This document shows positions 13,828-54,534 of a stretch of DNA of 64,000 nt, one piece after another (positions within the stretch are counted from its first letter, which is position 1; each line of letters begins with the position of its first letter). Below the pieces are notes generated by a model that ran no database searches, had not been told where the DNA came from, and saw only the letters and a list, made by a program, of their open reading frames with translations. Made by a program: the position numbers and the translations under genes. Location of the stretch: positions 11,452 through 75,451 of the forward strand of contig JBBTRC010000010.1 of assembly GCA_038065355.1 (NCBI GenBank), in the 5' to 3' direction. The DNA comes from Patescibacteria group bacterium. Its GTDB lineage: Bacteria; Patescibacteriota; Minisyncoccia; Phycocordibacterales; UBA918.

Positions 13828-13829
13828 AA

Positions 13830-15287
13830 TTATGGTAATTCGCTTGGTGGCGCTTTTATGCGTTCTCTTCGCACCTCTGGTTCGAGGCGGCGCAGCATAA
13901 TCCACATGAGTAAAGCTGCTGCCATGACGATACCGGCATAGAACCAAAACGATTCACGGACGGGTTGTTCCGATACAAAATTGTTGACCGTTTTTCCAAG
14001 CGCTTCGGCGCAGGCATCAAGCGCTTCGCAAGCAAAGGTCTCTGTGTGCTTTTGGAGCCCCACCCAGTTGGAGGAAGTGTCCTCGGTCGGTCTTGTTGCA
14101 CTATCGGCCAGATCGCCAAAGCGCCGATCAAGCAGTTCGGAGTACAGTGTGAAGTTATGTAGCGTTACGTTGGGGCGTACCCGAACAAAGTCATAGCCGG
14201 TGAATTCGTCGTAGCCAAAAGTTTGTTGGAAGACCTGATCGCCGGTGGTGTCGGTCAACACAAAGCGGAGTGCAATCGGATCAGTCGGAGCTAAGGTGCC
14301 GTCATCACCACCTACTACATCAAAACAAGCCACCAGCGAGGAGTCGCGTTGCACTGGATAATCGGACAGGCCGATTACCGACACGTAATTAAACGTCGTG
14401 TTGCCGGTGGTGCCCCGAAATTCAATGGGGACGGACACGAGCGGTTGCAGAGTGTTCGCAGTGTGAAGAGTGGCATAGAGTGTGTAGCGACCGCCGACAA
14501 AAAATCGTTCCGAAAATTCCGTGGTGCGCGTGGCGCCAGGGATCAGGCGAACCGAATCAGACTTTTCTGAAGTCACGGCAGTGCCAAGCGGAACCGCGCC
14601 TTCCGTCAGCACGAGCCTGATTTCACTGTCGATAAGTGGTAAGGTGGCCTTGTTGGTAGTTTGTACACTGGCGGAAACGGGAGTGCCGAGAGTAAGAGCG
14701 ACAGTTTTTCCTTTCGCAACTGCCACGTCGTTAATCTTCGCAGTAATAACAACCGGGGAAGAAGCAACTCCTTGTTTGATGAGCGTTCCGGCACTCTGCT
14801 TCTTTGCGGTGTTGAGCGCATGGCCGAGTAGGGTAGTTTCGTTCCCCTGTATCACAAACACCCGATACGCGTAGGTGCCCGGTACTACACTGGTGGTGGT
14901 AAGAGAGAAAGGGATTTCAATGAGTTCGTGCGCCCGCAAAGTAAGCTCGTCGGGTAAGACGACAAAGTAGGCGGGCACTGTATCGTCTTCTCTTTGATAC
15001 ACCGCAACACCGATTCGCACACCACCGAGTGTGAATTCGCTTTGGTTCGTGATGCTCACGTAATCATTCCACGAGTCGCCGACCATTTGCTCTGCTTCTT
15101 GACCGATGATGACTGCACTAAGGTTGCCGCCGATTGGACACAAGGAGAGTGATTCGTCGGCTCCGGCGGTAGTTTCTGCGTGCACAGTCGAAACGCTCGG
15201 CGCGTAGAGCAGGAGTGAACTGCAAAACGTGAGCAAAATACCAGCCGAAATTTTTTTTAAGATCATATATACACCAACCGACGCCAT
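13830..15287 (-). CDS. secreted protein with signal peptide and C-terminal membrane anchor (485 aa)
   Basis: N-terminal signal peptide ...VSTVHA, C-terminal TM FWFYAGIVMAAALLMWIML followed by basic tail; co-transcribed with the 1008-aa protein. Confidence 0.6.
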   Translation of the reverse strand: MASVGVYMILKKISAGILLTFCSSLLLYAPSVSTVHAETTAGADESLSLCPIGGNLSAVIIGQEAEQMVGDSWNDYVSITNQSEFTLGGVRIGVAVYQREDDTVPAYFVVLPDELTLRAHELIEIPFSLTTTSVVPGTYAYRVFVIQGNETTLLGHALNTAKKQSAGTLIKQGVASSPVVITAKINDVAVAKGKTVALTLGTPVSASVQTTNKATLPLIDSEIRLVLTEGAVPLGTAVTSEKSDSVRLIPGATRTTEFSERFFVGGRYTLYATLHTANTLQPLVSVPIEFRGTTGNTTFNYVSVIGLSDYPVQRDSSLVACFDVVGGDDGTLAPTDPIALRFVLTDTTGDQVFQQTFGYDEFTGYDFVRVRPNVTLHNFTLYSELLDRRFGDLADSATRPTEDTSSNWVGLQKHTETFACEALDACAEALGKTVNNFVSEQPVRESFWFYAGIVMAAALLMWIMLRRLEPEVRRERIKAPPSELP

Positions 15288-18692: not shown

Positions 18693-18873
18693 ACAAAGTT
18701 ATCCGCCCATAGCTCAGTTGGTAGGTTCGGGAGTATCCCATATTCCCTCACCCCACTTAAGGAGCCCGGTCGACAAAGTACAATTTAATATCCGCCCATG
18801 CTGTATGGTAGCGTGAGCAGTACCCCGCACTCCTCACCCCTTGATTAAGAAGGAGGAACGAACAATTTAATAT
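18693..18873 (+). repeat. two tandem degenerate copies of the tRNA-Lys 5' half plus its promoter-like leader (CAATTTAATAT-CCGCCCAT(A/G)GCT...)
   Basis: copies begin at 18703 and 18792 with CCGCCCATAGCTCAGTTGGTAG / CCGCCCATGCTGTATGGTAG, then diverge; neither has a 3' acceptor strand, so pseudo-tRNA. Confidence 0.5.
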
Positions 18874-18946
18874 CCGCCCATAGCTCAGTTGGTAGAGCGG
18901 CTCCCTTTTAAGGAGAAGGTCCCAGGTTCGAGCCCTGGTGGGCGGA
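18874..18946 (+). tRNA. tRNA-Lys (anticodon UUU)
   Basis: cloverleaf: acceptor CCGCCCA/TGGGCGG, D-stem GCTC/GAGC, anticodon loop CUUUUAA, T-loop TTCGAGC, discriminator A; CCA not encoded. Confidence 0.8.
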
Positions 18947-18994
18947 CAAAACATAGTTCACAACCATGCCATATACATCGGCTGATGGTAGGAT

Positions 18995-40858: not shown

Positions 40859-41018
40859 ACTTCAGACAACCAGTAATGCAATAGGCGTAACTTGCATTAT
40901 ACTCGTGTCAAAAGAACTGTAAATGTTTTTGGCGTTTTAGGCTATTTCAAAACCATTTTTCAAATTTGAAAATGCAACTGTGCATAACGTGTGCACAACT
41001 ATTCAACCAATGTAGAGA

Positions 41019-41120
41019 GCTCGTTCTCCACTACATATTTTGAGCGTCCGCGGGGGTAAAGTGCTTGTAGTAGTAACCAAACATCGGAGCGTGTGAAAAA
41101 TATGTAGTGGGGAACGAGCG
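41019..41120 (+). repeat. palindromic repeat element family, copy 1 (upstream of dnaA)
   Basis: conserved core ACATATTTTGAGCGTCCGCGGGGGTA..AACCAAACATCGGAGCGTGTGAAAAATATGT flanked by copy-specific inverted arms GCTCGTTCTCCACT / AGTGGGGAACGAGC. Confidence 0.6.
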
Positions 41121-41181
41121 TCGAGTATTCCCATTGAATATTTTACATAATCATGTATAGTTGCGCGGTAATCTACAACCT

Positions 41182-41331
41182 ATGCCAAAACGAACCTACC
41201 AACCAAGCAAGCGCAAGCGAGCCACTACCCACGGTTTTCTCGTACGGTCACAGACCACGAGCGGTGCCAAGGTGCTCCGCGCCCGTCGCCGCAAAGGTCG
41301 CGCACGATTAACGGTTAAAAAAGCTCGCTAA
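41182..41331 (+). CDS. rpmH: 50S ribosomal protein L34
   Basis: 49 aa [25 protein letters not shown]...; below ORF-track size cutoff; classic rpmH-rnpA-yidC order. Confidence 0.85.
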
Positions 41332-41363
41332 GAGCTTTTTTTGATTGTTATACTAGAGTATCT

Positions 41364-41696
41364 ATGCTCAAAAAAAGTGAACGTGTAGGCCGTAAGGACT
41401 TCAGCGTCTTTTTTAAGTCTGGCCGCCGCTTCCAGTCCCCCCACACGACTATCATCTACACTCCCCACCCGACATTGGCTGGTTCGGTCGTGGTGAGCAA
41501 GAAGGTGAGCAACAAAGCGGTCGAACGAAACAAACTTCGCCGCCGTGTGTATGACGCACTCCGGCAGACTCTAAAGACGCAAAAGAAAACCGGCGTGTTC
41601 ATTGTGGTTGTAAAGCCATCCATTCGTTCGCTTCCGCGCGCCGAGCAAAGAAGCCACCTGCTCGCGCAAATTGGACAGGTAGTCAAAAGCACGTAA
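41364..41696 (+). CDS. rnpA: RNase P protein component
   Basis: 110 aa basic protein with RNR-like motif region (KLRRRVYDALRQ). Confidence 0.8.
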   Translation: MLKKSERVGRKDFSVFFKSGRRFQSPHTTIIYTPHPTLAGSVVVSKKVSNKAVERNKLRRRVYDALRQTLKTQKKTGVFIVVVKPSIRSLPRAEQRSHLLAQIGQVVKST

Positions 41697-41708
41697 AATA
41701 GGCAAATT

Positions 41709-42440
41709 ATGTTTAGCTTCATCTGGCACACATTTTTCTTTGACCCAATTTACAATATGTTGGTGTTCTTTGTTGACACCTTCCCTCATGGGGATGTTGG
41801 TCTCGCGATTGTCGCTACCGTCCTTTTGGTGAAGCTGGTGCTCTTACCACTTTCGATCAAGGCGCTCCAAACCCAGAAAATCATGCGTGAGATCGAACCG
41901 AAACTGAAAGAGATTCGGGAAACTCACAAAACTGACAAAGAAGCACAGGCAAAAGCCACCATGGCGATTTACAAAGAAGCAAAACTCAATCCCTTTGCGA
42001 GCATCTTTCTCGTTTTCTTGCAGATTCCGATTGTCATTGCATTGTATTACGCGGTGTATAGCGGTAGCGCCGGTATTGCTTTGCCAAACATTAACCCTGC
42101 AATTCTCTACTCGTTTATCCCAGTGCCCGAAGCTGTCTCTATGATCTTCCTGGGCTTGTTTGATATTTCACAAAAAAGCCTTGTGCTCGCGCTCTTGGCC
42201 GGTGTCACACAGTATTTGTACGTGCATCTATCGATGCCCAAATTGCCTCAGAAAAAAGAAGGCGTCACGCCCGACCTCAAGGAAGATTTTATGCGTAACA
42301 TGCAGTTACAGATGAAGTATGTGATGCCAGTAATTATCACCGTCATTGCCTATACCATTTCAGCCACCATCGCGCTGTACTTTTTGGTCAGCAACCTGGC
42401 GGCAATCGCACAGGAGTTTTATATTCGTAAGCATAGATAG
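41709..42440 (+). CDS. yidC: membrane protein insertase YidC/Oxa1 (short form)
   Basis: 243 aa, 5 TM, conserved TM1 positive patch and amphipathic helix (KIMREIEPKLKEIRETHKTD). Confidence 0.85.
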   Translation: MFSFIWHTFFFDPIYNMLVFFVDTFPHGDVGLAIVATVLLVKLVLLPLSIKALQTQKIMREIEPKLKEIRETHKTDKEAQAKATMAIYKEAKLNPFASIFLVFLQIPIVIALYYAVYSGSAGIALPNINPAILYSFIPVPEAVSMIFLGLFDISQKSLVLALLAGVTQYLYVHLSMPKLPQKKEGVTPDLKEDFMRNMQLQMKYVMPVIITVIAYTISATIALYFLVSNLAAIAQEFYIRKHR

Positions 42441-42449
42441 GGACACCCC

Positions 42450-42545
42450 ACTCCTCACTGTGCATATTTTTCACACGCTCCGATGTTTGGACACCACTAC
42501 AAGCACTGTACCCCCGCGGACGTTCAAAATATGTAATATGAGGTA
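42450..42545 (-). repeat. palindromic repeat element family, copy 2 (minus orientation)
   Basis: reverse complement matches core of copy 1 over about 80 nt; arms CCTCACTGTGC / GTAATATGAGG. Confidence 0.6.
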
Positions 42546-42576
42546 AGGTACCTTTATGGACGCCAACCGTGAAGCT

Positions 42577-42936
42577 TTAAATAGCGAAAGAAGTGAGCGC
42601 TGGGTTGATTTGATTTAAGATCACGACCGACGCGATGATAAGCAAAAGGCCAAGTAGTGCACTTTGAATGTCTTTTTTTGCTTCACTCTTATTACTCACG
42701 ATATCAGTGAGCATCCATTTCACACCGGCCACCACAATTTTCACCACAGCCAAAAAGGCGGCAATGCCAATCACGAGGCTGTAGAGCCAGTTGAGAAAGT
42801 TCACAAACCCTCCGCCGCCCGAGCTGTAGTTGGGAAAATTGAGGATGGTCTGAGCTTGGATCTGTCCCAGCGTCACGAGCGGAGCGGTTAGGATGCAAAA
42901 GACCAGCAAAGGAATAAAAAGTTTCAGGGCACTCAT
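42577..42936 (-). CDS. small membrane protein, possible T4SS pilin (VirB2/TrbC-like)
   Basis: 119 aa, signal peptide plus two hydrophobic helices; first gene of the VirB4-containing cluster. Confidence 0.35.
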   Translation of the reverse strand: MSALKLFIPLLVFCILTAPLVTLGQIQAQTILNFPNYSSGGGGFVNFLNWLYSLVIGIAAFLAVVKIVVAGVKWMLTDIVSNKSEAKKDIQSALLGLLLIIASVVILNQINPALTSFAI

Positions 42937-44165
42937 AGGGATTGTTCGTTAGTTTCTGCTAAGGTGGGTAGCTTATCAGGCAGTGTCAACAACCAAAGCG
43001 AATCATCGTTCTTATTCTGGAAATACAATCGCGAGTCGTCCTTGTAGAGAGACAGGCGTGTGATATCGAGCGCGCGTCCTGATGCAGAGAGAGTGTTCGA
43101 GAGTAGGTCTGTGGACTGATCGGCGACGTTGATGCTCCAGAGTGAATCCGCAAATGAAATAGCACCCTGATACCAGCTGTCGGGTAGGCTGCTTGTAAGC
43201 TCGGTCGAGGTGTCTCGCGCACACAGCATGCGTGTGGCACCACTGGTAAAAATACATTTCTCTGGCAAGACAGGGAGAGAGAGTGGTGAGGTGGTGGTAG
43301 CGTAGACTAGCGTTGAAGAAAAAACAGCATCGGCTTGTTCTGCATACAGAACCGTCGACCCTTCTCCTTCGGCCGTCAACCCAAACCCATCGACTGGAAG
43401 ACGAGTGAGTGTTCCAGCTTCTATTTTATAAAGAAATCCTTCCAGCTCTCTCGTGGCTTTGGGGTAGACGTAGTGAATGCTCTTGGCGGTACTGCCCCAG
43501 TCGATCATCGCTTCTCGAAACGGAATCGTAAAAAGAGTACGCGTGGTCTTTTTGGCAAAGTTGTAAGCTTTTCCAACGACGCTGGAATTTGTTTGTTCAG
43601 CGAAGAGTAGCTCATTATCTTCGGTGGCATGAAGGGACACAACCACACCCTCGATTGGTGTGAGGGCGAGCGACGATTCGGTTTCATTGAGATCAGCGAT
43701 ATACGTTTGTTTTCCACCGGCTTCGTTGGTCTCAATTACCAAGTGCTTTCCGTCAGGCATAATCACCGCAATTTCCGCACCAGGAACGGACGTGCCGGAG
43801 AGTCTGGTTTCTGTTCCGCTCTCAACATCGAGTGCAAAGACATGACCAACGCCGGCTTCAACAAAATACACTTTGGGCGATGAACTACCGGTTGTGACTT
43901 CAGCGTAGCCAGCGACGTGTTTGGTGGTGAGCTGGCGAAGCGCCTTGTCGGAAGACGAGTCGATAACGGTATCTGTGGATCCGTCACCAGCGCCATCTGT
44001 TTCGGTGTCGGTCACGGTGCCGTCGGTCGTGTCACCAAGGTCAAGATCGGCAAACGTATCGCCGGGAGCGGCTTGTTTGTCTGCAAAAAAGAGCAGGTAC
44101 GACCACACGCCAATGAGGAGTAGGATGAGTAGGGCGCCGATGATGATAAGAGTCTTGCGGTTCAT
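42933..44165 (-). CDS. N-terminally anchored secreted protein, beta-propeller-like
   Basis: TM anchor, Asp/Thr/Gly-rich linker, repeated beta-strand blocks reminiscent of TolB-like propellers. Confidence 0.4.
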   Translation of the reverse strand: MNRKTLIIIGALLILLLIGVWSYLLFFADKQAAPGDTFADLDLGDTTDGTVTDTETDGAGDGSTDTVIDSSSDKALRQLTTKHVAGYAEVTTGSSSPKVYFVEAGVGHVFALDVESGTETRLSGTSVPGAEIAVIMPDGKHLVIETNEAGGKQTYIADLNETESSLALTPIEGVVVSLHATEDNELLFAEQTNSSVVGKAYNFAKKTTRTLFTIPFREAMIDWGSTAKSIHYVYPKATRELEGFLYKIEAGTLTRLPVDGFGLTAEGEGSTVLYAEQADAVFSSTLVYATTTSPLSLPVLPEKCIFTSGATRMLCARDTSTELTSSLPDSWYQGAISFADSLWSINVADQSTDLLSNTLSASGRALDITRLSLYKDDSRLYFQNKNDDSLWLLTLPDKLPTLAETNEQSL

Positions 44166-44175
44166 AACATTCTAA

Positions 44176-45141
44176 CTAATACGTAACGCTCATAGTGCCG
44201 CGGGTTCCTTGTAACACTTGCTCGGTGTCTCTCACATGGAATCCGACGGCGGAATTGCTTGATTCGGCAGTTTTTTGGATAGTAATCTGATAAGGGTTCC
44301 CGTCGGGACTCCTGAATTCAGAGCCGTCGATGCTCCAGTCGGCGATGGTGGGATTATTAAATACGCGAGTGTCAAGGTGATACGGCTCGGCGCGGAGTGT
44401 CGTGCTGTTACCAATGAGGGCCAGGCTACTCATGATAGGTCGATGTGATTGACCGTAGAGGGAACTTTCTTCATAAAAATACATTTCAGGTGTCACCGAC
44501 GGTACGTAAATGGCGTGATCCCCCACAATAGTGCCATCGGGGCGACTTATCTGAACAGATAAGATGGAACTCGCACCACGGGGCATTTCAAATGAGACTT
44601 GGTTCCGACCGCGAATCGGACCACCTTCCAGTACTTCTGTGTTTAGACGCCATAAGTAGATAAGGTCGGTACCGAGCGCGCGACCGGTGTCTAAAAGTGC
44701 CGTTGCGTTTACAAGCGCACCAATGCTCGGCAAAGCCCGGCCGGCGTAAAAGTCGGGCACGTGCGTTTGTGGTTCGATCACAATATCAAGATACGAAGGC
44801 AGAATGGTAGTCGAGAGTACCCGCTGGCCACCCTGTGGAGTCGAGAGTACCGCCTCAAGTGTGTGACGTGAACCTACGGCTCCCGCGACCACGTTCACCT
44901 CTCGTTTGTTGTCGCCGTTTGGAATCACCTGACCATTCAATCGCCACCGGATACCCGAGCCGCCGAGTGAACTATAGTCGTTCACCTTTGCCGAGACCGT
45001 CTCGCCTGGCTTGGGGAAAGCCGGCTGTAGTTCAATCGTGTCGGCTGGAGTAAGCAATTCGGTAGGATTAATCTGCGCCAAGGCTGGCTGACAGGCTCCC
45101 CACAACACTATAGAAACAAGCGCGCTCGTAAAAATCCTCAT
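44176..45141 (-). CDS. secreted protein (signal peptide MRIFTSALVSIVLWGA...)
   Basis: ORF with internal start giving a clean signal peptide; beta-rich. Confidence 0.4.
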   Translation of the reverse strand: MRIFTSALVSIVLWGACQPALAQINPTELLTPADTIELQPAFPKPGETVSAKVNDYSSLGGSGIRWRLNGQVIPNGDNKREVNVVAGAVGSRHTLEAVLSTPQGGQRVLSTTILPSYLDIVIEPQTHVPDFYAGRALPSIGALVNATALLDTGRALGTDLIYLWRLNTEVLEGGPIRGRNQVSFEMPRGASSILSVQISRPDGTIVGDHAIYVPSVTPEMYFYEESSLYGQSHRPIMSSLALIGNSTTLRAEPYHLDTRVFNNPTIADWSIDGSEFRSPDGNPYQITIQKTAESSNSAVGFHVRDTEQVLQGTRGTMSVTY

Positions 45142-45190
45142 AGCTCTATCATACCAGACCCCGCCTAGTGGAATCATACTCATGCATCCC

Positions 45191-46168
45191 CTATTTGGGA
45201 TATCGCCAGACCACCAGTGTCCAGAAGAAAAACCAGGGAATCAGGCTTAAAAACGGGACTAGTCCGGCGTAGCCGAAAAGCGCAAAGAAAAACATGCCCA
45301 GTTTCGTACCCGCTTTTTCACCGCTAAAGGGCTTCAGACCACTAAACAGGTAAATAAAGCTGGCGATGAGGAGCGTAATAATGCCGACCGATAACACAAT
45401 GAGCTCAGCGAGGAGGAATAAAGTTTGGGGGTTGATAGCGGTACCCACCCCGTCGATGACTGCTTCGAGATCGACACCCGTCACCGCGTGGATGGCGTAA
45501 CTGCCTACGGTTTTATTGCCTATATGAGGAGTTGTACTTTTTGCCACCCAAGCGATTCCGTTCGCTATTTTTCCGACGCCATTCACGACTTCTTCTGAAA
45601 GTACTGCGCTCGCCGCGGCATGACTAGCTTTGCCTGCTTCATCAGCTAAGCCCATGACCCCGAAAGCGAACAAGCCAAGAAAAGCACCCATTAGCTGCAG
45701 TGTGCCGTATAGCAGAAAACCAAATGACCAAATCCAGAGGTTGGTGCGGGTCGCTTTGGCCCGTTCGCCAAGCGAAGCTCGTTTGGCACGAAGCCGCCTA
45801 GCTTGCCTATCAGCTTCGTCTCGATTTCGATTGATGATGTACCTAGCTCGATTGGCCAGAGTCGCCGCCCCCCCGGCCGCAGCAAGTGGAACTCCAACGA
45901 TAGCACCAATGCCGGTGCCGCTCAGTGCGGCACCGGCTCTCATCGCGGCCGTGCCGGCCGCAGAAGTGGTTTTGCCCATAACTTGTACTCCCTTTCCGCC
46001 TCCTCGTAGAGTCGGGCCGGCAACTTTTCCACTTTGGCGGGCATGGGGATTTTTCTGCTCCACTTTTACGTTCCGGATTGGTGCCGCAAAACCGACCGAT
46101 GGTTGCAGACCCCGCGTGGCGTACTCTGCGTTGAACATTTCGTCAGTCGTTGGCCGAGTGGGCTCCAT
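45191..46168 (-). CDS. membrane protein with Ala/Gly-rich N-region and about 4 C-terminal TM helices
   Basis: possible T4SS inner-membrane component (VirB6/VirB8-like slot); no diagnostic motif. Confidence 0.35.
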   Translation of the reverse strand: MEPTRPTTDEMFNAEYATRGLQPSVGFAAPIRNVKVEQKNPHARQSGKVAGPTLRGGGKGVQVMGKTTSAAGTAAMRAGAALSGTGIGAIVGVPLAAAGGAATLANRARYIINRNRDEADRQARRLRAKRASLGERAKATRTNLWIWSFGFLLYGTLQLMGAFLGLFAFGVMGLADEAGKASHAAASAVLSEEVVNGVGKIANGIAWVAKSTTPHIGNKTVGSYAIHAVTGVDLEAVIDGVGTAINPQTLFLLAELIVLSVGIITLLIASFIYLFSGLKPFSGEKAGTKLGMFFFALFGYAGLVPFLSLIPWFFFWTLVVWRYPK

Positions 46169-46180
46169 GTTTCTATTGTA

Positions 46181-47977
46181 CTATACGCGCGTTGCCTGCA
46201 GTTCTTCGCGGGCTTTCTTGATTTGGAGCAGTTGCGAAGGGTCGGAAGTAATGATCTGATCTTCGGTATAAGAGGCGATGATTTTGATCGCTACGTGTTT
46301 GAGGCCGGCAAAGAAAATGCCCTCGCCGACGTTTGATTCAAGGAGCAAGAACTTCTCCTCATCGGTCAAGTTGAAGGTTTTCTGGACGTTGTCAATGGCG
46401 GTCGGCGACTGCTTCATGAGGAGCTGGATCGAGGAGTTTGTGATCATCGGCACGCCATAGGGAGAACGTAAGAAGTCGTCCACATCTTGGGTGATAGTAC
46501 CGATACCGAGGTAGTATTTGCGGCCTCGTTTGGCAAGACTAAATAAGAACGATGCGGTGTCTTCAGATTTCATCATCCACCAGGCTTCGTCTATCACGAG
46601 AAGGCGCTTGGCCAGCCGGCGCCGGATAGACCCCCAGATAAAGTTGGTAATGATGTACATGGCGATGGTCTTGAGCTCGTCTTCCATGTCGCGGATAGAG
46701 AACACCACAAATTTTTGGTTGATGTCGACGTTGGTGGGCTGGTTCATGAAGCCTGACCAAGTGCCGGACGTGTATTTCTGCAAGCGTGTAATCAAAGAGG
46801 CGCTCCCTTCCATACCCGCCAGCACCATTTCAAAATCAGACAACAGCGGCGGTTCTTGTTCGGCAAAGTTGGAGTCCCCAGTGATATCCTTGAGCGCGTA
46901 GGTTTCTTGTATGGCCAGGTCGATCAAAGTTTCTTCTTCCGGCGTGAGGCCTCCCAGCATGAGCCGAAATAAGCCGACGAGCTCGATAATGTGGGTGCGC
47001 AGTACATCGCGTGGATCTTCGTCCGTTGTCGGCGCGGGCAGATCAAACGGATTGACGTGATGATTGGAGGAGAGCGAAATGTTAAAGAAACGCCCACCAG
47101 TCGCTTCGGCCAAATACTCGTATTCTCGTTCAGGATCGATGACGATGACTTCTGTCCCAAACATAAGGGAGCGAAGAATTTCGAGCTTCAACGCGTATGA
47201 CTTGCCCGCGCCTGAGGTGGCAAAGGTGACCGAGTTGTAGTTGGTCAGGCTGAAGCGATCAAAAAGCACCAAGCTGGAGTTGTGACGATTGATGCCGTAG
47301 AGAATGCCGTTGTCAGAAGTGAGGTCAAACGAGGTAAAGGGGAAAAAGCTCGAGAGCGGTTCGGAGTTAAACTTGCTGTGCACAAGGAGCTCATCGGTCG
47401 CGAGTGGAAAGACGCTCTTGAGCCCCTGCTCCTGCTGAAAAAGCGCCTGCTTCACACCAACGAGACGGGAGTCCAGTATGCCGCGCACCTCATTTTCAAT
47501 CTTATTTATTTCGGTTTCGGTCTGGCCGTAAATAGCGAGATAAAAGCCGACGTTGAAGAGCTTCTCTTCGGCTTGTTGTAGTTTGTCTCGCAGGTCCTCA
47601 AGGTTGCGGTAGGCCGCTTCGAGTTGGGGGTCGCGCACTTCCCCTCGCTCGGCCTTCATGTTGATCTGGCTTTCCACTTCCGCCACTTTTTTTTGAAATT
47701 TTTTCAGAGTCTCGGCCGTGTCTATAGGGTGAATGAAGATTGAAATATCAATTTCCCGAGCCAGGTTAAGGACCGGTTCAATCCAGCCGTCGTTGAGGAA
47801 GCGTGGGTAGGTGACCGCGTAGTAAACACGTGCGATGGCGCCGCTCAGGTCGATGTTTTTTGGATTGATGTTAATCGCCGAGGGAGCGATGACGTCGGTG
47901 AGGGTCAGCAAGTGGTCGTCCATGCTGTTGTTTGGCTCGGAGGTTGATTTAGTTTGAAGAATATCAAGAATGCCCAT
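46181..47977 (-). CDS. VirB4/TrbE/CagE-family T4SS ATPase, C-terminal part
   Basis: Walker A GAGKSYALK, Walker B VIDEAWWMM, typical VirB4 middle region (ARVYYAVTYPRFLNDGWIEP). Confidence 0.75.
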   Translation of the reverse strand: MGILDILQTKSTSEPNNSMDDHLLTLTDVIAPSAININPKNIDLSGAIARVYYAVTYPRFLNDGWIEPVLNLAREIDISIFIHPIDTAETLKKFQKKVAEVESQINMKAERGEVRDPQLEAAYRNLEDLRDKLQQAEEKLFNVGFYLAIYGQTETEINKIENEVRGILDSRLVGVKQALFQQEQGLKSVFPLATDELLVHSKFNSEPLSSFFPFTSFDLTSDNGILYGINRHNSSLVLFDRFSLTNYNSVTFATSGAGKSYALKLEILRSLMFGTEVIVIDPEREYEYLAEATGGRFFNISLSSNHHVNPFDLPAPTTDEDPRDVLRTHIIELVGLFRLMLGGLTPEEETLIDLAIQETYALKDITGDSNFAEQEPPLLSDFEMVLAGMEGSASLITRLQKYTSGTWSGFMNQPTNVDINQKFVVFSIRDMEDELKTIAMYIITNFIWGSIRRRLAKRLLVIDEAWWMMKSEDTASFLFSLAKRGRKYYLGIGTITQDVDDFLRSPYGVPMITNSSIQLLMKQSPTAIDNVQKTFNLTDEEKFLLLESNVGEGIFFAGLKHVAIKIIASYTEDQIITSDPSQLLQIKKAREELQATRV

Positions 47978-47982
47978 GGTAG

Positions 47983-48627
47983 TTAATTGTTACGGTCGAG
48001 CGCAGGCGCGGCTCCGGTCGGGTCGCCAGGGTTGTAAATATGGTAGAAAAATTCGACCAGTTCGTCTTGCTTCAAGGCGATCGAACGAACCCCGACGCGA
48101 GATAAACCTTGTGTGACCAATCCGACCCGCTGTTCAAGCTGAATGCGGTGCTCCTCAAAGCGGGCGTCGGTTGGTATGAACGCTTTCTGTGGCCCCCCGC
48201 TTAGCACATTCGACATATTTTTAGAGAGGCTAAGGACTGGCGGAGTGTAGGGAATGACAACAAAGAAGTTTTTGCTCATCACATCGACATCGGTTGTGAA
48301 AGTGCGGATAAATTCCATGTATTCGCGCAGCTGAATCCGCATCAAGTCGTTGTCCTGTTTTACCTCGAGACTGGCCAAGAGGGCTAGGTACGGCTCGATG
48401 TTGAGGCGGCGTGATTGCACATATATTTGCAAGCTGAAATCCAGCGTGTTGATGAACTGTTGAAACTGCAGCAAAATCGCCTGTTGCTCATCAAGCGATT
48501 TGAGCGCGAAGTTGATCGATGACACCAGCAAGACCATATTCATTTGGCCATTCTTTTGAATCACCACATCATCTTTGATGTCGCGAATAGAAACAAAATC
48601 TTGGGTGGCGGCGGTGGCTTTTGGCAT
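47983..48627 (-). CDS. VirB4 N-terminal domain encoded as a separate ORF
   Basis: SIRDIKDDVVIQKNGQMNMVLLVSSINFAL resembles VirB4/TrwK N-terminus; stop TAA then 5 nt then ATG of the ATPase ORF, different frame. Confidence 0.5.
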   Translation of the reverse strand: MPKATAATQDFVSIRDIKDDVVIQKNGQMNMVLLVSSINFALKSLDEQQAILLQFQQFINTLDFSLQIYVQSRRLNIEPYLALLASLEVKQDNDLMRIQLREYMEFIRTFTTDVDVMSKNFFVVIPYTPPVLSLSKNMSNVLSGGPQKAFIPTDARFEEHRIQLEQRVGLVTQGLSRVGVRSIALKQDELVEFFYHIYNPGDPTGAAPALDRNN

Positions 48628-48634
48628 AGATAGA

Positions 48635-49063
48635 TTACTGATTTTGCTTTTGCATAGCTTCTAATTCCAGACGGCGCGCGAGCGAGGCGATGTTTTTGCC
48701 GCTGCGGCTCCGGTCGCGCGGCGGCGCGACCGGAGCCGAGCGGCGTTGTTCAGACAGGCTGGTTCTGTTGCGATACACAATGTCTTTCTTTTGACGCCAG
48801 AGGTAAAGGCGTTTCCCCGTCACGTAGTTGAAGATAGCTTCGAGAAAATATGAGAACGGGCGATTGTTGACGGGGTAAAATGCCAGCGCCCCCGCGAGCG
48901 CCCCCGCCGGTATGCCAAAAAGGACAAACAGAAACAGATTGCCGGTAAAAAAGAGGACAGCCGCGAGGCCGAGTCCTCCGCCCAAATACAGAAACTGACG
49001 CCACGACAGCGGCCCAAAGATCTTATCTTCAATTTCAATAAACTGCGGCACTTCAAAACGCAT
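48635..49063 (-). CDS. small 2-TM protein (VirB3/PrgI-like)
   Basis: 142 aa with two adjacent TM helices, immediately upstream of VirB4, as in Gram-positive/CPR T4SS loci. Confidence 0.4.
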   Translation of the reverse strand: MRFEVPQFIEIEDKIFGPLSWRQFLYLGGGLGLAAVLFFTGNLFLFVLFGIPAGALAGALAFYPVNNRPFSYFLEAIFNYVTGKRLYLWRQKKDIVYRNRTSLSEQRRSAPVAPPRDRSRSGKNIASLARRLELEAMQKQNQ

Positions 49064-49126
49064 ACACCACCATTATACATGGTGGTGTATGCGTCGGCGC
49101 TGTGCGACTTGAGTATTTCGACACCT

Positions 49127-49222
49127 ATCCCTCACTACATATTTTGAGCGTCCGCGGAGGTACAGTGCCCATAATGGTAACCAAACATCGGAGCGTGTGA
49201 AAAATATGTGGTGGGGAATGAG
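49127..49222 (+). repeat. palindromic repeat element family, copy 3
   Basis: core identical to copy 1 at most positions; arms CCTCACT / GGTGGGGAATGAG. Confidence 0.6.
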
Positions 49223-49237
49223 TCTCCGTGCTGCCCT

Positions 49238-49765
49238 CTACTTTTTTATCTCTCCTTGTTGCGGCTCGTCCCGCTGAACATTTTTCCGACTCTCCTCTAA
49301 AAGAGCGGCCTGTGTCGAACTGTACACCGCCTCTCCCTGCGTCCGCGCTTCGTTCATATCCTCGGCCATGGTGCGCACTTGCGAAACTGTTTTTTCGTCT
49401 GGCTTTATTGGCAGGTTGGGTGTGGCTTTCGCAGTAGTAACGTTGTCTTCCACAGTTCCTAACACAATAGTATCGTGGGTGTCACTGACTGTTGTTGGGA
49501 GTATCGACATAAAAGCGCCTACCACAGCCATGCTCGTCTCGCTTTGGATTCCATTCTCTACGAGGAACGTTTCGAGATCACTACGGGTAAAGAAGTAAAG
49601 AAGGTACAACATGAAGCCGTTACTCAACACAACCCGTTGCTGTTCAGTTAATTCTGCCTCTTCCGCCAAGTCAGTAGAGGCTTGATTTACAAACTCACTT
49701 TCAACAAAAGCGCGGTATTTTTGGCTAAAGCCCTGTAGTCGTTCTTGTATTAATGTGTCGTCCAT
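49238..49765 (-). CDS. hypothetical protein (175 aa)
   Basis: ORF within T4SS-like cluster; no motif. Confidence 0.35.
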   Translation of the reverse strand: MDDTLIQERLQGFSQKYRAFVESEFVNQASTDLAEEAELTEQQRVVLSNGFMLYLLYFFTRSDLETFLVENGIQSETSMAVVGAFMSILPTTVSDTHDTIVLGTVEDNVTTAKATPNLPIKPDEKTVSQVRTMAEDMNEARTQGEAVYSSTQAALLEESRKNVQRDEPQQGEIKK

Positions 49766-49771
49766 AGTGTT

Positions 49772-51961
49772 TTATTTTTCGTCCTTCTCGGCTTTTTCTG
49801 GTTTTGCTTCGTCTTCCAGACCGTGTTCCTTGTCAACTGCTTTTTCAGCCTCTTTTTCTTCTTTTCTCTTTTTAACCGTCGCTGCTTTTGTGCCCATTTC
49901 TGCCGCCGTTCCACCGAATTTTTTCTTTAAGTTATCGAGTGAATCTTGCCGGGCTTTGTTAGTTACGCCTGGTAGGTCAGCTTGATTCACGTCCCTTTGC
50001 TTGTCGTTGAGGTAGGCAATTTTATTTGCAAACTTAATTTCAGCTTCAGCAATATTTTTTCTGTTCTTTTTATGCGCATCCTCATCGCCGGCGAATTTTT
50101 CAGCTGTGTCCTTCCTCTCTTTGTTGACTATCTTTCGTGCTCGAATACTTTCTTCAGCCTGTTGCTCAAGTTTTTGAGCATACTCCTCAGCCTGACGTTT
50201 CGTAGTTGGGTCGTTCTTTTTCTCCGCATTTACTCTTTCTTGTTGCGCTCGTTCCTTGAGCTTGGCCGCCTCGCGAACAGCTTTCTTCTGTTCCAGGTCT
50301 TGCTGTTTCTGCTTAACCATTCGTTGATACTCTGCTTTCGGCATACCGGCCACGTCTGCTCCGCCCAGTGTCTTACCGAGCACACCAGTCATATTCTTGA
50401 TCTCCTTTTCAAGTTCATCCATTTCGCCCGACAGTTCTTTTGTCGACTTGAGCTGATCAGTATCAAGTTTTGTTTCTGCTTCAGCGACAGCGCTCAGTTC
50501 ATGCTGAGCTTCTGCTTGTATCTCCGCCGCTCGTATTTCGGCTTTGGCGAGATTCTTCGGATCTGTCATGTCTTTGTCACCGATTGATTTATAGAATTTC
50601 TCGTCAGCCTTTGTTCTCGCTTCTGCTCTCGAGCTAAAGCCGCCCTTCTTACCCGTGCCAAGACCAGTCGCTTTGCCAAAGCCACCAATGTTTCGAGCAT
50701 CGAAGCCACCGTCGGCGGTAGCGCGGGTAGCCTTTAGTGCTTGTCGGCCGAGAACATTACCAGTAAAGAGTGAGCTACGTGACATGTGTCCGGCTGCGGC
50801 TGCAGCTCCGCGACCAACGGTGTTTCTGCCGGCAAAGGCGGCGGTGCCAAAGGTGGCGGCACCGGCACCCCGCACAATTTGTTTGCGCGCGCTGCGTTGC
50901 ATGTTATTGCCGATCTTGAGTGCCTGCGCCGCGCCCTGGTCGCCCATTTTTTGAGCGATGACGAGGGAAGCAAGCAGAAAGATCACAATGATAATGAAAG
51001 GACCAAAGGCGCTGGCGATGGCTGCTATAGGTGCTTGTGCTGCTGCATTTCCGGTTGTTGTGTTGGCCGAGGTGAGGCCGTCCGCAAAGTCTATATTAAA
51101 CGCGACTATTCCCTTGAGTAAAAGAAGCGACAACATCAGCATTAAAAAATAGATAGGCGCGAAAAAGGCCTTACTCAAAAATCCTTTCCAGTAGTCCTTA
51201 GTGACACTCTGGAGCTGTGGAAAGACCCAACCGAGAAACATAAACGGCGAAAGCATCATATAGAGAATAAGCGCGGCGGCGCGGATGAGGAGTAGGATGC
51301 CGCCGGCAAAAAATACAAATGCGGCGGTAATAAGTACAATCGCTATACCAAAAATAAGTCCCCACGAATTTGCAGTGTCGCCCTCAGAAAATACACTTTG
51401 CAAGTTCATCTGCTCCATGACCGCCGTTGACATTGAAATGCCCGGTTTACTTGGGCTGATGGGTAAAGCAGCGTTATTGGGGGGCGGTATAATCGATTGC
51501 TGAATGCCTAAGTTGACTACTTCAGTGGCCAAGATATTGCTAAAGTCAACAATGAATTTGGTAAAGAAGAGACTGAAGTTGACCAACAGTGCGGCTAAGA
51601 TCAAACTCACCAGCACCTTTCTCGTCTGGCTATCGTCACTGCTTAGTATCATCTTGAGGCCAATGTACACGAGGCCAAAGATAAAAGTGAGGTTGAAGAG
51701 GTCGCGGACCAAGACCCAGGTGCTATCAACCACTGCCCCCACGCCCCCAGAGACGTACTGGTATCCGAATCCTAGTACAAAGCTATTGGTAGCGTAGTCG
51801 AGCACGCCCGCCCCTGCCCCCACGAAGAGGCCGAAGAATCCGACTATCACGTTGTAGATAAACTCTTCCACTGTAGCGAAGGCCGGCCACGGCATCACAA
51901 GCATGAATACCGCCAAAAGGGGTAAGAGCGAGAGGGTGGTGAGTGGATGACGGCGGAGCAT
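49772..51961 (-). CDS. polytopic membrane protein with long Lys/Glu-rich coiled-coil tail (VirB6/TrbL-like)
   Basis: about 8 TM helices in first 420 aa, then 300-aa charged helical tail; typical architecture of T4SS VirB6-type channel proteins. Confidence 0.45.
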   Translation of the reverse strand: MLRRHPLTTLSLLPLLAVFMLVMPWPAFATVEEFIYNVIVGFFGLFVGAGAGVLDYATNSFVLGFGYQYVSGGVGAVVDSTWVLVRDLFNLTFIFGLVYIGLKMILSSDDSQTRKVLVSLILAALLVNFSLFFTKFIVDFSNILATEVVNLGIQQSIIPPPNNAALPISPSKPGISMSTAVMEQMNLQSVFSEGDTANSWGLIFGIAIVLITAAFVFFAGGILLLIRAAALILYMMLSPFMFLGWVFPQLQSVTKDYWKGFLSKAFFAPIYFLMLMLSLLLLKGIVAFNIDFADGLTSANTTTGNAAAQAPIAAIASAFGPFIIIVIFLLASLVIAQKMGDQGAAQALKIGNNMQRSARKQIVRGAGAATFGTAAFAGRNTVGRGAAAAAGHMSRSSLFTGNVLGRQALKATRATADGGFDARNIGGFGKATGLGTGKKGGFSSRAEARTKADEKFYKSIGDKDMTDPKNLAKAEIRAAEIQAEAQHELSAVAEAETKLDTDQLKSTKELSGEMDELEKEIKNMTGVLGKTLGGADVAGMPKAEYQRMVKQKQQDLEQKKAVREAAKLKERAQQERVNAEKKNDPTTKRQAEEYAQKLEQQAEESIRARKIVNKERKDTAEKFAGDEDAHKKNRKNIAEAEIKFANKIAYLNDKQRDVNQADLPGVTNKARQDSLDNLKKKFGGTAAEMGTKAATVKKRKEEKEAEKAVDKEHGLEDEAKPEKAEKDEK

Positions 51962-51979
51962 AGCAGTGTAATTAGCGGA

Positions 51980-53422
51980 TTAGTAGTAATAGCCTCCGGG
52001 CGGCGGTGGGGTTGGTTGGATAACCGGACCGGAACTGCCGCCGGAAGACGTGCCGAGGATTGAGTCCCAGTACGCTCGCGAGGTGGCGATGTCGGTCTGA
52101 CGGTAGAGCGTCAAGCTGTTGAATTGTTGAATGATTTGACTTTGAACGGTTGCATTGCCATTGGCCGCGTTGTATTGACTGATCAAGTTGTTAAGCGTGC
52201 TCACGTTGTTGTTGGCGGTCGGAATGATTGCTTGATTGATGTTGGTGACAGCGGCCGAGGCGGCAGAGCGTAGGTTGGCGGGATTGCTGTTGTTGTTGGC
52301 AAAACTGGTGAGCGGTGCGACATAGGACTGGGCGGTCGAGATGTAGCTCTGCTGGGTCTGGAGCGCGCTCTGCATGAGTGAAAGGGCGTTGGCGGTGGTC
52401 AAGGAGCCAGCGCTACTCGAAGCCAGTCCGCTAGTGTATGAACCGCCGTTGTAGCCAGTGTAGGTGTAGCCAGTGCCGCCCGAGAGGCCAAGGAGACCGG
52501 AGGCACCGGTAATGGCAGTGTTGGCGAGCTGAGTCAGAAGTGCGGCCAGAATTTCGTTGAATTCGTCGGCGGCCACGAGCGACTGTCGGCCAGAGTCGAG
52601 GTTGAATGAGAGAGCTTCTTGGATCATTTTTCCGGGTTTGGCGATAATACATTTCTGCTGTGGGCCAGTTGGTGTGGTGACGTTAAAACATACTTCGCCG
52701 GAGAAAAATCCGTCACCCTGATCGAGAATCTGATTCTTTTCGTTACGAGTATTGGCGACTTCAGACCGCATACCGTCGATGCCAGCCTGGATTTGTCCAA
52801 AAGGAGTGTACGAACTTGGCTGGTTGACCATCTGGAACCACTGGTCCCAGCCGCCAGCTGAAAAGTTGCCCTGGGTAAAGGCTTGGATATTGTTGACGAC
52901 GCCCGACAGCGTACAGGCGGCCGACGAGATCGGTTGGTCGAGCCGATCAAGATCGTACTGGAGCGATACCGCTATCTGCACGTCGAGGGCAAACGGTGAA
53001 CAGATGAACGAGCCGACCTTCCCTAAGCTCTGAATGTAGCGCCCGGCCGCCACGTCAGCCTGAGCCAGAAGGTATCCCCGCAGGTCCTGCACGAAGGCCG
53101 GACTCCCCTGAAAGCCAGAATTGATCCAGTTTACCAAGCTACCGACCATCGTGTTAATGAGTCCTTTGGCGATCACCCAAGCGATACCATCGAGTACCGA
53201 TTCTTTAAGCCAGAGACTACCTTGAATTACCGACATAGCGGTAGTAGCGACCGCAGTCGCAGTATTTTGGACAAAGTTTGTCGGATCGTAGACGACCGCA
53301 CCGGCCTCGACGGTTTCGATATGATTGTATGGTTGTGGCACATAGGTAGCGACAAAACCAAAGATGATGAACACCGCAGCCACCAGGCTTTTTTTCAAAC
53401 ACATGAAGAAAGTATCGATCAT
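51980..53422 (-). CDS. secreted Ser/Thr/Asn/Gly/Ala-rich protein (480 aa)
   Basis: N-terminal TM/signal, low-complexity C-terminal half ending GGYYY; T4SS-associated surface protein candidate. Confidence 0.45.
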   Translation of the reverse strand: MIDTFFMCLKKSLVAAVFIIFGFVATYVPQPYNHIETVEAGAVVYDPTNFVQNTATAVATTAMSVIQGSLWLKESVLDGIAWVIAKGLINTMVGSLVNWINSGFQGSPAFVQDLRGYLLAQADVAAGRYIQSLGKVGSFICSPFALDVQIAVSLQYDLDRLDQPISSAACTLSGVVNNIQAFTQGNFSAGGWDQWFQMVNQPSSYTPFGQIQAGIDGMRSEVANTRNEKNQILDQGDGFFSGEVCFNVTTPTGPQQKCIIAKPGKMIQEALSFNLDSGRQSLVAADEFNEILAALLTQLANTAITGASGLLGLSGGTGYTYTGYNGGSYTSGLASSSAGSLTTANALSLMQSALQTQQSYISTAQSYVAPLTSFANNNSNPANLRSAASAAVTNINQAIIPTANNNVSTLNNLISQYNAANGNATVQSQIIQQFNSLTLYRQTDIATSRAYWDSILGTSSGGSSGPVIQPTPPPPGGYYY

Positions 53423-53432
53423 AGGCGTAACG

Positions 53433-54332
53433 TTAAATTTGACTTTGGTTATTAGGGCTAAACACCACGAACAGCACCGCCGGATCGTCTACCGTGAACA
53501 GACTGGCGTAGGGTTCCAGGCCTTTATAGATGTTTTGCAGAGCCAGGTAGAGACCGGTCGCGTCTTCTTCGTAGCGCTTGAGACGAAGCAGTGTGTAGGC
53601 CGGGTCGCTGTAGCTATAGGTCATAGCCGTGATGTCGGCCTGAATGGCGTGGTAGGTGTTGATGAGGTCAAGATGTTGCTTGGCCATAAAAGCTGGTACC
53701 GGGATTTTGAGAGTATCATCTCGGGTCTTTTGATACGTGAGCGCCAGCGCGTCAAGTTCAGCTATGCGACTTTGATCCCTACGATTCAAAATGTCCTGCA
53801 ATATATAGAGCTCATTCTCTTTCACGTCGACAGCATCGTTGGTGGTAATCGCCAGCGCCAGTGCGTTGGCGTAGGTGCGAATAGTGTCCTCGGTCCACTC
53901 GTCAATAATTTTTATGTCGGGCGTGTCGTAAATTTCCACACCGGTTTCTTTTCGAAGTACCTCGATGGTGTTCCCAATAATTTCTTCGTCGCTTCTGGCA
54001 AAGGCGCCGTGGGTACGGGAGGATAAGATGTCTTGGAAGAAGTTGATGCCGAGCTGGCCGGTTAGGGTGTCGGGCGGCGTGTAGGTGGTTGAGGTGTCCT
54101 CGAGCACGAGGGGGTCGGTGGTGACGAAGTCGTCGCGCCAGTCTTCAATGCCGTTGTTATTTTCGTCCACCACCTCAATGGCGGTGCGGGCTGGTGCCGC
54201 GTTCACGACGGCCGCGGTTTCTGTAGGAGCTTTAAATGAGCTTTGTCCAAAATTAGACAGCGTGTAGGCGGCACCGACAAGGGCAAACCCTATCACAAAG
54301 GCTCCGACTATTTTGGAGTTCGGCTGACTCAT
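53433..54332 (-). CDS. membrane-anchored extracellular protein
   Basis: start set at internal Met (MSQPNSKIVGAFVIGFALVGAAY) because ORF N-terminal extension overlaps repeat copy 4. Confidence 0.4.
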   Translation of the reverse strand: MSQPNSKIVGAFVIGFALVGAAYTLSNFGQSSFKAPTETAAVVNAAPARTAIEVVDENNNGIEDWRDDFVTTDPLVLEDTSTTYTPPDTLTGQLGINFFQDILSSRTHGAFARSDEEIIGNTIEVLRKETGVEIYDTPDIKIIDEWTEDTIRTYANALALAITTNDAVDVKENELYILQDILNRRDQSRIAELDALALTYQKTRDDTLKIPVPAFMAKQHLDLINTYHAIQADITAMTYSYSDPAYTLLRLKRYEEDATGLYLALQNIYKGLEPYASLFTVDDPAVLFVVFSPNNQSQI

Positions 54333-54399
54333 ATACACTAATAGTATAGCAACGACTACAGGTGTTTTATGCGCCTGTGCACAAAGCTGTGTATGAAGC

Positions 54400-54508
54400 G
54401 GGACGTGTCCCCTCATTACATATTTTTCACACGCTCCGACGTTTGGTCACCTCTATAAGCACTGCATCCCCGCGGATGCTCAAAATATGTAATGAGGGGA
54501 CACGTCCC
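54400..54508 (-). repeat. palindromic repeat element family, copy 4 (minus orientation)
   Basis: 27-bp perfect arms GGGACGTGTCCCCTCATTACATATTTT / inverse; same core. Confidence 0.6.
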
Positions 54509-54534
54509 GATAAGTGTCTATAAAGCTGTTGATA

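Follow-up and report, generated by a model that had tools for sequence, protein, structure and literature searches.

An undescribed intergenic hairpin element of about 100 bases with a conserved core and copy-specific stems in Patescibacteria

A 64,000-nucleotide (nt) stretch of a Patescibacteria group bacterium genome (contig JBBTRC010000010.1 of assembly GCA_038065355.1, positions 11,452 to 75,451 of the forward strand; hereafter the window) contains four repeats that are true copies of an undescribed intergenic hairpin element of about 100 bases, found in Patescibacteria, the candidate phyla radiation (CPR). Each copy has a conserved core closed by a stem whose sequence is its own. Our evidence base consists of about 22 distinct copies. 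Comparison of these copies demonstrates that they belong to one family with a conserved structure, that they are dispersed between genes and are present or absent among relatives, that their stems are decoupled from their cores, and that they have no link to the boundaries of an island.

Four hairpins in the window belong to one family

Copy 1 lies on the plus strand at 41019..41119, with arms at 41019-41033 and 41105-41119 around a core at 41034-41104. It forms a full hairpin that scores 111.5 bits against a covariance model, which was built from 18 copies; its closing helix has 23 base pairs (bp), one of them G-T, and its RNA fold has a free energy of -51.2 kcal/mol (z = -7.8). On the minus strand, copy 4 (54399..54509; arms 54399-54418 and 54490-54509, core 54419-54489; 109.6 bits) has a perfect 28-bp closing helix and a fold of -67.7 kcal/mol (z = -10.2), and an inverted-repeat search found its 28-nt arms to be 100% complementary. 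Copy 3 (49120..49226, plus strand; core 49138-49208; 97.8 bits) is a hairpin within the type IV secretion system (T4SS)-like gene cluster of the window and runs antisense to its flanking genes. Its helix of 26 positions includes three G-T and two A-C pairs. Copy 2 (42453..42543, minus strand; core 42463-42533; 89.8 bits) is a hairpin with degraded arms: four positions of its 18-bp helix are non-Watson-Crick, and its fold has a z of only -1.8. The continuous helices of the window copies, counted from the core, thus span 18-28 bp.

The original prediction, made from the letters of the window, had placed four palindromic repeats here. All four are where it put them, with refined ends that differ by 1-9 nt, and its core of about 80 nt contracts to 71 nt on measurement (CATATTTTGAGCGTCCGCGG...CATCGGAGCGTGTGAAAAATATG). 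With up to three mismatches allowed, the left block of the core (ACATATTTTGAGCGTCCGCGG) and the right block (AACCAAACATCGGAGCGTGTGAAAAATATGT) each have four matches in the window, where shuffles give chance expectations of 0.01 and 0.00, respectively. A general repeat search of the window returned the same four copies as its top direct and its top inverted families, with copies 2 and 4 as direct repeats of 80% identity over 101 nt. The covariance model, run with filters off, found no fifth copy in the 64 kb. A CCGCGG within the core, also part of the prediction, is shared by the four window copies; copies elsewhere vary at this site and can have CCGCGA, TCGTGA, CCGCTG or CCATGG.

Outside the window, Patescibacteria genomes and metagenomes contain the element at no fewer than 17 further sites (loci are given below by handles beginning with L). 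An exact 20-mer of the right block occurs in four metagenome-assembled genomes, labelled by their depositors as Parcubacteria, Kaiserbacteria, Saccharibacteria and Nomurabacteria, and a 19-mer matched 14 metagenome loci, among them 10 distinct true elements and two chance matches. The covariance model added copies without the exact word, namely L003b, L003c, L025A, L025B and a mini variant in L033/L034. Three copies lie within 8 kb of the Saccharibacteria-labelled contig L003, and L025 holds one good copy (L025A) and one decayed relic (L025B). Horizontal transfer across classes, considered from subfamily and sample, is not claimed here, as composition cannot separate AT-rich loci into genomes.

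The family had been proposed to be new, and the searches agree. The element matches no Rfam 15 family: at gathering score, the sole Rfam match in the window is a tRNA, and a permissive scan of copy 1 gave chance hits with E > 7. No match was found among INPHARED phages, PLSDB plasmids and IMG/VR contigs, a search that included a degenerate two-block pattern. The literature on repeats, miniature inverted-repeat transposable elements (MITEs), structured RNAs and REPINs in CPR bacteria and Saccharibacteria yielded no description of the element, and papers on TIGR-Tas systems are relevant by analogy only.

A conserved core is closed by a covarying stem

In every true match the core measures 71-72 nt, and complementary arms of 8-20 bp, peculiar to that copy, enclose it. 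We examined the structure by pair counting and with RNAalifold on a MAFFT alignment that was anchored on the core and not fitted to any structure. The core begins with an 8-bp A/T stem (CATATTTT/AAAATATG), followed by an irregular helix formed from two conserved blocks, each of which contains GAGCGT. In most copies this irregular helix consists of tandem G.A/A.G pairs, then G.U, C-G and G.U pairs, and then a 3-bp CGC/GCG helix. The apical region of about 30 nt is weakly conserved (53% identity over all copies) and has UGCUU as a short conserved motif at its centre. Over all copies, identity is 32% in the outer arms, about 50% in the inner arms and 83-95% in the internal blocks.

The closing stem is one continuous helix, in which 93.3% of the stem cells of the alignment are paired. 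It contains 78 double-sided changes, compared with 23.9 +/- 4.2 in shuffles, none of which reached the observed number in 500 trials, and sliding the partner column as a control left 13-21. This bears out the prediction that the arms are copy-specific yet self-complementary, both within the window and in copies from other genomes, where complementarity is kept. The 8-bp stem also covaries in diverged copies (CCTATTTT/AAAATAGG, CTTATTTT/AAATAAG and GGCTTTTTCT/AGAAAAAGCC).

Pairing is retained inside the core as well. Changes of G25/G27 to A keep their pairing with U76/U74, and in L002 and L017 the tandem G.A pairs are swapped for U-A/C-G or U-A/U.G with the register unchanged. In diverged copies the CGC/GCG helix shows one U-A compensation and two wobble-compatible changes. 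Two registers were compared for the internal pairing, and the one given by RNAalifold (30-32 with 71-73) is slightly better supported in this small sample, by one U-A compensation in L025B and by U.G/G.U in L025A and L003c. The mini variant of L033 is 67 nt long and lacks the apical region: its perfect 17-bp stem encloses the two blocks, which are joined into GAGTGGTCGCGGGGAGTGTGTGA. Because the mini variant keeps just these, the essential parts of the element are a stem of any sequence and the two GAGCGT blocks. In all four window copies, the top strand (as written) folds 5-10 kcal/mol better than its complement.

Stems diverge independently of cores

The loci L006, L010/L016, L015 and probably L013 have tetranucleotide compositions that correlate with that of the window at r = 0.87-0.94, as is the case for known same-genome loci, and the coverage of these four in the same samples matches that of the window. 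On the strength of this matching composition and coverage, the window genome most likely holds at least eight copies, each with different arms. The cores of these copies are 88-98% identical and their apical loops about 81%, and identity falls to 59-67% in the inner arms and to 37-39%, near random, in the outer arms. Copies whose apical loops are 94% identical have arms that are 44-48% identical, and L003b and L025A, with 82% identical loops, have arms with 11% identity. Over all pairs, the correlation between loop identity and arm identity is 0.25. Arms can nevertheless travel with the element, as illustrated by arms that are shared at unrelated loci: CTATCC(C/T)TCA(C/T)TA is found in copy 3 and L015, and TCCCCT(C/A)ATTA in copy 4, L013 and L012.

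Point substitution followed by compensation is ruled out as the source of this divergence, because it could not alter half of the arm in the time that the weakly constrained loop takes to change by 6%. The pattern is compatible with two processes. The stem may be renewed at or soon after insertion, or the cores of old copies may frequently undergo gene conversion while their stems drift. As positions differ between related genomes and new positions arise, core conversion alone is insufficient, and we infer that stem renewal is the process to be favoured.

Copies come and go in a stable chromosomal neighbourhood

The gene order around the window copies is dnaN, dnaA, rpmH, rnpA, a short yidC, the minus-strand cluster, ksgA and a UvrD/PcrA helicase. 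The T4SS-like cluster (42577..54332, minus strand), which serves here as context, encodes by Pfam a pilin, a VirB4-like ATPase and TraC-like, PrgI and TrbL-like proteins, among others. The rest of the window is housekeeping in character (ATP synthase, ruvA/B/C, polA, a Mur ligase, a PilB-type ATPase and tRNA-Lys), and its YidC protein is identical to one in a metagenome-assembled genome labelled 'Patescibacteria group bacterium' from the Hainich H41 groundwater well. The next YidC sequences, about 70% identical, carry the labels Kaiserbacteria, Nomurabacteria or Paceibacterota. We compared the window with seven lineages (L025-27, L028-30, L031, L033/34, L036, L037 and L038), which were reached via YidC or PrgI homologues and whose cluster homologues were annotated by precomputed Pfam. 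L035, considered as a possible 95% relative, turned out to come from the same organism and to differ in its start call.

The order pcrA-ksgA-(T4SS-like cluster)-yidC-rnpA-rpmH-dnaA-dnaN is kept in all seven related lineages. The covariance model found no element in this region in L028-30, L031 and L036-38. L025 has two elements at a different spot inside the cluster, L033 has only the mini variant upstream of PrgI, and none of the seven lineages has an element at the two cluster boundaries. Copies 2 and 4 do lie in the same orientation at the two ends of the minus-strand cluster, as had been noticed from the letters. The further suggestion that they mark its boundaries or mediate its excision has to be abandoned, as the cluster is syntenic in seven lineages that lack boundary repeats. 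Pfam scans of the window found neither an integrase nor a relaxase, a coupling protein was likewise not detected in the window, and the GC content of the cluster (0.49-0.53) is not distinct from the window mean of 0.51. A general preference for island boundaries is also not seen: copy 3 is inside the cluster, and other copies are found beside ribosomal-protein, mraZ, HU and prfB genes. The repeats come and go in a stable chromosomal neighbourhood and therefore do not delimit a mobile segment.

Individual gains and losses can be placed between relatives. When L031 and L028 are aligned with the window, copy 1 and its arms stand out as inserted DNA, flanked by conserved DnaA boxes on one side and by the rpmH promoter on the other. 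It adjoins the DnaA-box-like pair TGTGCATAA and TGTGCACAA (40975..41001, plus strand), as predicted; these boxes lie upstream of it and are conserved as TGTGGATAA-type boxes in L025, L028 and L031. The rpmH promoter (TTGAAT-N16-TATAGT, 41134..41161, plus strand) lies 14 nt downstream of copy 1 and is kept in the relatives without an element, and the position of copy 1 beside the DnaA boxes is lineage-specific. With L036, L037 and L038 as the comparison, all of copy 4, including its full 20-bp arms, constitutes an indel; it is situated between the ksgA stop codon and a conserved TGCTATACT promoter. The yidC/pilin junction, occupied by copy 2 in the window, carries an ordinary bidirectional terminator hairpin in L031. 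In L012 (65-71% protein identity), an element occupies the divergent spacer between tyrS and PBP genes, and the same spacer is empty in the window.

Two local origins of the arms were considered. Insertion into a pre-existing hairpin is rejected for copy 4, as three relatives have no hairpin at the empty site and the indel includes the arms, and for copy 1, whose arms are part of the insertion. For L011, L008 and L010, with outer arms that resemble terminators, it is a possibility. For an origin of the arms as inverted copies of the adjacent flank, copy 1, copy 4 and the L012 element showed no convincing similarity, in comparisons with relatives that are too distant to be decisive.

Two further observations concern these spacers. 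The dnaA-rpmH spacer of L025 (6735-7640) contains a different insertion of about 500 nt, with a further insertion of about 100 nt after rpmH. Since the window, L028 and L031 have neither, insertions land repeatedly in the origin-proximal spacer. The promoter of the first cluster gene (54332-54398 in the window, and in L036-L038) has the conserved extended -10 TGCTATACT; upstream of it, the window and L037 have CTT(C)ATACACA in imperfect tandem repeats, two of which flank the insertion of copy 4.

Some spacers are occupied in more than one lineage. The spacer between the stop codon of a 175-amino-acid (aa) open reading frame (ORF) and the PrgI promoter contains an element in three lineages (window, L011 and L033) and is empty in four (L031 and L036-38). 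The window copy is antisense to the flanking genes, whereas the L011 copy, next to a PrgI that is 58% identical, and the L033 mini variant are in sense. In the syntenic loci L003 and L008 (proteins 55-83% identical), an element lies between the prfB stop codon and the rpsB promoter, antisense to both genes. The conserved blocks of L003b and the L008 element are identical; 5 of their 14 arm pairs differ on both sides and two more differ via G.U-type states, which looks like compensatory evolution in situ. Their arm similarity of 57% is no higher than that of arbitrary copy pairs, so that orthology is unproven and independent insertion into the few available spacers is possible.

Copies lie between unrelated housekeeping genes

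Every copy is intergenic and lies beside unrelated housekeeping genes, including rpmH, dnaA, yidC, ksgA, rplY, rpsB, prfB, rpsP, rpsO, mraZ, hupA and genes for a NUDIX hydrolase and methyltransferases. Copies between tandem genes are divided equally between sense and antisense (5 each), at least five lie between divergent genes (copy 1, L003a, L010, L012 and L015), and one lies between convergent genes. This is copy 2, at the convergent yidC/pilin junction, 8 nt past the yidC stop and 29 nt past the stop of the pilin gene. Several copies follow a stop codon (by 5-45 nt) or a terminator and precede the next -35 element by 12-30 nt; copy 4, copy 3, L003b/L008 (prfB / rpsB promoter), L002 and L004 are examples of such stop-to-promoter placement.

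The 55 nt upstream of the top strand do not resemble a promoter more closely than the 55 nt upstream of the bottom strand (Wilcoxon p = 0.89), a result that speaks against a dedicated small RNA gene. Most copies have no T-run after the hairpin. The element was rejected as an intrinsic terminator, as most copies lack a U-tract and five lie between divergent genes. A shared partner gene near the copies was also rejected: an all-against-all BLAST of the ORFs at these loci gave only synteny (L003/L008 and L007/L015) and spurious ORFs derived from the element itself. Among the 77 ORFs scanned with Pfam, from the 64-kb window and the loci flanking copies, none matched Y1_Tnp and none contained a Nop/Tas domain.

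ORFs are called through the element at L001 (5328-6674), L013 (2625-2909), L002 (759-1106) and L010 (5838-6101). Translated cores give rise to spurious homology (75% identity over 24 aa between L001 and L013), which makes them an annotation trap.

Comparison with known repeats and structured RNAs

The closest analogues of the element are bacterial repeats of the REP/REPIN, ERIC, Correia and MITE type. REP sequences and REPINs are mobilised by RAYT transposases (Bertels and Rainey 2011, PMC3116915). Like REPINs, the copies described here are extragenic, about 100 nt long and found in either orientation, and are predicted to form a long hairpin in single-stranded DNA or RNA. They also share with REPINs the two conserved blocks around a less conserved spacer of fixed length, the compensatory changes, the families within genomes and the decayed relics. 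In REPINs, however, the invariant 16-mers form the outer ends and the flanks beyond them are not complementary (PMC3116915), whereas here the outermost 8-20 bp are the least conserved part and yet are paired, and the conserved blocks lie inside. Unlike REPINs, the element has no GTAG-type REP signature, its copy number appears low (at least eight per genome), and no RAYT gene was seen in the DNA examined, which comprised the 64-kb window and the loci flanking copies.

With MITEs and with Correia, NEMIS, RUP, ERIC and BOX elements, the family shares a small, non-coding, intergenic and palindromic form, presence or absence between relatives, and an RNA hairpin if co-transcribed. The copies of a MITE have terminal inverted repeats in common, usually with a target-site duplication such as TA. 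The termini here are instead unique to each copy (only the inner 8-13 bp are common to some copies), no duplication is seen, and there is no sequence similarity to these elements.

A different likeness is to the stem-loop tigRNAs of CPR bacteria, whose stems are variable but consistently palindromic and diverge within an array (PMC12045711; bioRxiv 10.64898/2026.09.09.750476). Both occur in CPR hosts and have a variable palindromic stem, conserved only beside internal motifs, with a small apical hairpin possible; the UGCUU at the centre of the apical region is a further point of likeness. In contrast to tigRNA arrays, which are found at or within a tas (Nop-domain) gene, the window copies are 1.4-6 kb apart and lie beside housekeeping genes. 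In addition, tigRNAs carry two variable spacers of 8-12 nt between box C (CUU) and box D (UG), whereas the stem-adjacent segments of the element are invariant or nearly so in 18-21 copies from several genomes. Identity with tigRNAs was therefore rejected: the would-be spacers are conserved, the box C/D spacing differs, the window contains no 18-bp dual-spacer target, and no tas gene was seen in the scanned ORFs. Integron attC sites likewise combine a variable sequence with a conserved folded single-strand structure and strand-selective folding. Unlike the element, attC sites conserve their outer R/L boxes, vary centrally, and follow each cassette in one orientation in an array next to intI.

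A mobile hairpin and its alternatives

We hold with moderate confidence that the element is a REPIN/MITE-like interspersed hairpin that propagates and is recognised as a folded single strand via its conserved internal loop, with a stem that is specific to each locus. Its active form would be the folded single strand, as suggested by the better folding of the top strand and by the G.U/G.T and G.A pairs. A putative trans-acting protein would read the conserved internal loop, so that the stem would only have to pair, and mobility would proceed through a single-stranded intermediate. The closing stem would be renewed at or soon after insertion by snap-back or template-switch synthesis, not by slow compensatory drift. 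Copies are gained and lost in intergenic spacers, and they proliferate or become homogenised within a genome. The original prediction had offered a structure under selection or a palindrome-generating insertion mechanism as explanations for the differing arms, and both are still live.

A stronger version, which we consider speculative and on the whole unlikely, is that the family represents either a new kind of mobile hairpin that inherits only its core and acquires a fresh stem with each insertion, or a new class of protein-bound structured RNA of the CPR. In the first case, a single-stranded intermediate might be extended by snap-back to give the fresh stem, or the stem might arise through fold-back or template-switch repair. 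Either one, if true, implies a dedicated putative protein that reads the GAGCGT-containing internal loop.

Several observations weigh against the mobile hairpin. Neither the window nor the DNA beside copies yielded a gene for a transposase, an HUH/RAYT protein, a reverse transcriptase or another partner, and across 21 copies there is no consistent direct repeat outside the helix that would represent a target-site duplication. An autonomous longer relative, an empty-site read or an excision product was not seen. The excess of G-T over A-C among stem mismatches (15 versus 6) is no more than suggestive (p = 0.08). Occupancy of the same spacer in several lineages could mean long-term retention in situ for a host function instead of selfish turnover. 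Finally, the sampling is biased, as most copies were ascertained via an exact 19-20-mer in the right-hand block.

The main alternative, which is tentative and which we regard as rather unlikely, is that the copies are a family of structured small RNAs or protein-binding RNA modules, transcribed from their own promoter or by read-through. Each would fold into a long hairpin with a protein bound at its conserved internal loop, and the stem would serve processing or stability, for instance as a substrate of RNase III. Such a design would resemble that of the tigRNAs of CPR TIGR-Tas systems, whose stems are likewise variable but palindromic (PMC12045711; bioRxiv 10.64898/2026.09.09.750476). Conserved loops with covarying stems are typical of functional RNAs, and the G.U and tandem G.A pairs occur on one strand only. 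The changes in the L003b/L008 arm pairs (5 of 14 on both sides, two more of G.U type) and the mini variant, which keeps exactly the stem and the two blocks, also fit an RNA. Yet the top strand shows no promoter excess, the orientation to neighbouring genes is random, and several copies lie between a terminator and the next promoter, all of which speaks against transcription as an RNA gene. Moreover, the units are dispersed and not arrayed, the scanned ORFs contain no Nop/Tas domain, the window has no dual-spacer target, and the segments where tigRNA spacers would lie are conserved. The stems also diverge far faster than the weakly constrained loop, which is not predicted for compensation in an RNA gene.

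Less probable again is a host cis-element at intergenic boundaries, such as a terminator, an insulator, an mRNA stabiliser or a docking site for a DNA-binding or nucleoid protein, that would be retained in place and separate upstream transcription from the next promoter. The position of many copies, 5-45 nt past a stop and 12-30 nt before the next -35, is what such a role would lead one to expect, as are the presence of copy 2 where L031 has a classical bidirectional terminator and the occupation of the same spacers in several lineages. There is also precedent for protein docking, as the RIP/BIME-1 elements of Escherichia coli and the Correia elements of Neisseria contain IHF sites within a palindromic frame. 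Against this, most copies lack a U-tract, at least five lie between divergent genes, where there is nothing to terminate, and most relatives have no element at the same junctions. A plain terminator, furthermore, needs no conserved asymmetric core of 45 nt. Hardly credible is the idea that an excisable 12-kb T4SS island has copies 2 and 4 as its attachment or boundary repeats, as their position as direct repeats exactly at the cluster ends might suggest. The ksgA-yidC interval holds the cluster in seven lineages without boundary repeats, and copy 3 sits within the cluster. Elsewhere, at unrelated loci, there are at least four more copies that probably belong to the same genome. The Pfam scans of the window detected neither an integrase nor a relaxase, and the GC content is not distinct.

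The CPR, or Patescibacteria, have tiny, gene-dense genomes in which few repeats or non-coding elements have been described, and a conserved, structured, multi-copy element in several of their lineages implies an uncatalogued mechanism of mobile DNA or an RNA-protein system. Its conservation is inverted with respect to known repeats, as the loop is invariant and the ends are unique but paired, and the decoupling of stem and core is not predicted by standard transposition or by simple compensatory evolution. If each insertion makes its own stem, this would be a new route to palindromes in bacterial genomes. The covariance model could be used to annotate such elements, which would prevent their misreading as island boundaries, terminators or spurious ORFs.

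Other features of the window

The T4SS-like cluster is a conserved neighbour of the dnaA-rpmH-rnpA-yidC origin region in seven Paceibacteria-like lineages. Within it, a palindrome with 14-bp arms (ACGCATACACCACC-ATGTATAA-GGTGGTGTATGCGT, 49059-49095) overlaps a TATAAT -10 element and the start codon of PrgI (minus-strand start at 49063). It is found nearly base for base in L031 and partly in L011 and L033, and looks like an operator or attenuator of the PrgI/VirB4 operon.

Elsewhere, two adjacent minus-strand ORFs of 1048 and 485 aa, which overlap by about 115 nt, occupy 10804-15287 of the window and have no Pfam match at E <= 0.001. The gene for tRNA-Lys(UUU) at 18874-18947 is preceded by two truncated copies of its 5' end and upstream leader. 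One is an exact 25-nt repeat (18700-18724) and the other is AATTTAATATCCGCCCAT (18782-18799); a CCTCACCCC-type motif comes after each. They may have been left behind by an integration or duplication event at the tRNA gene.

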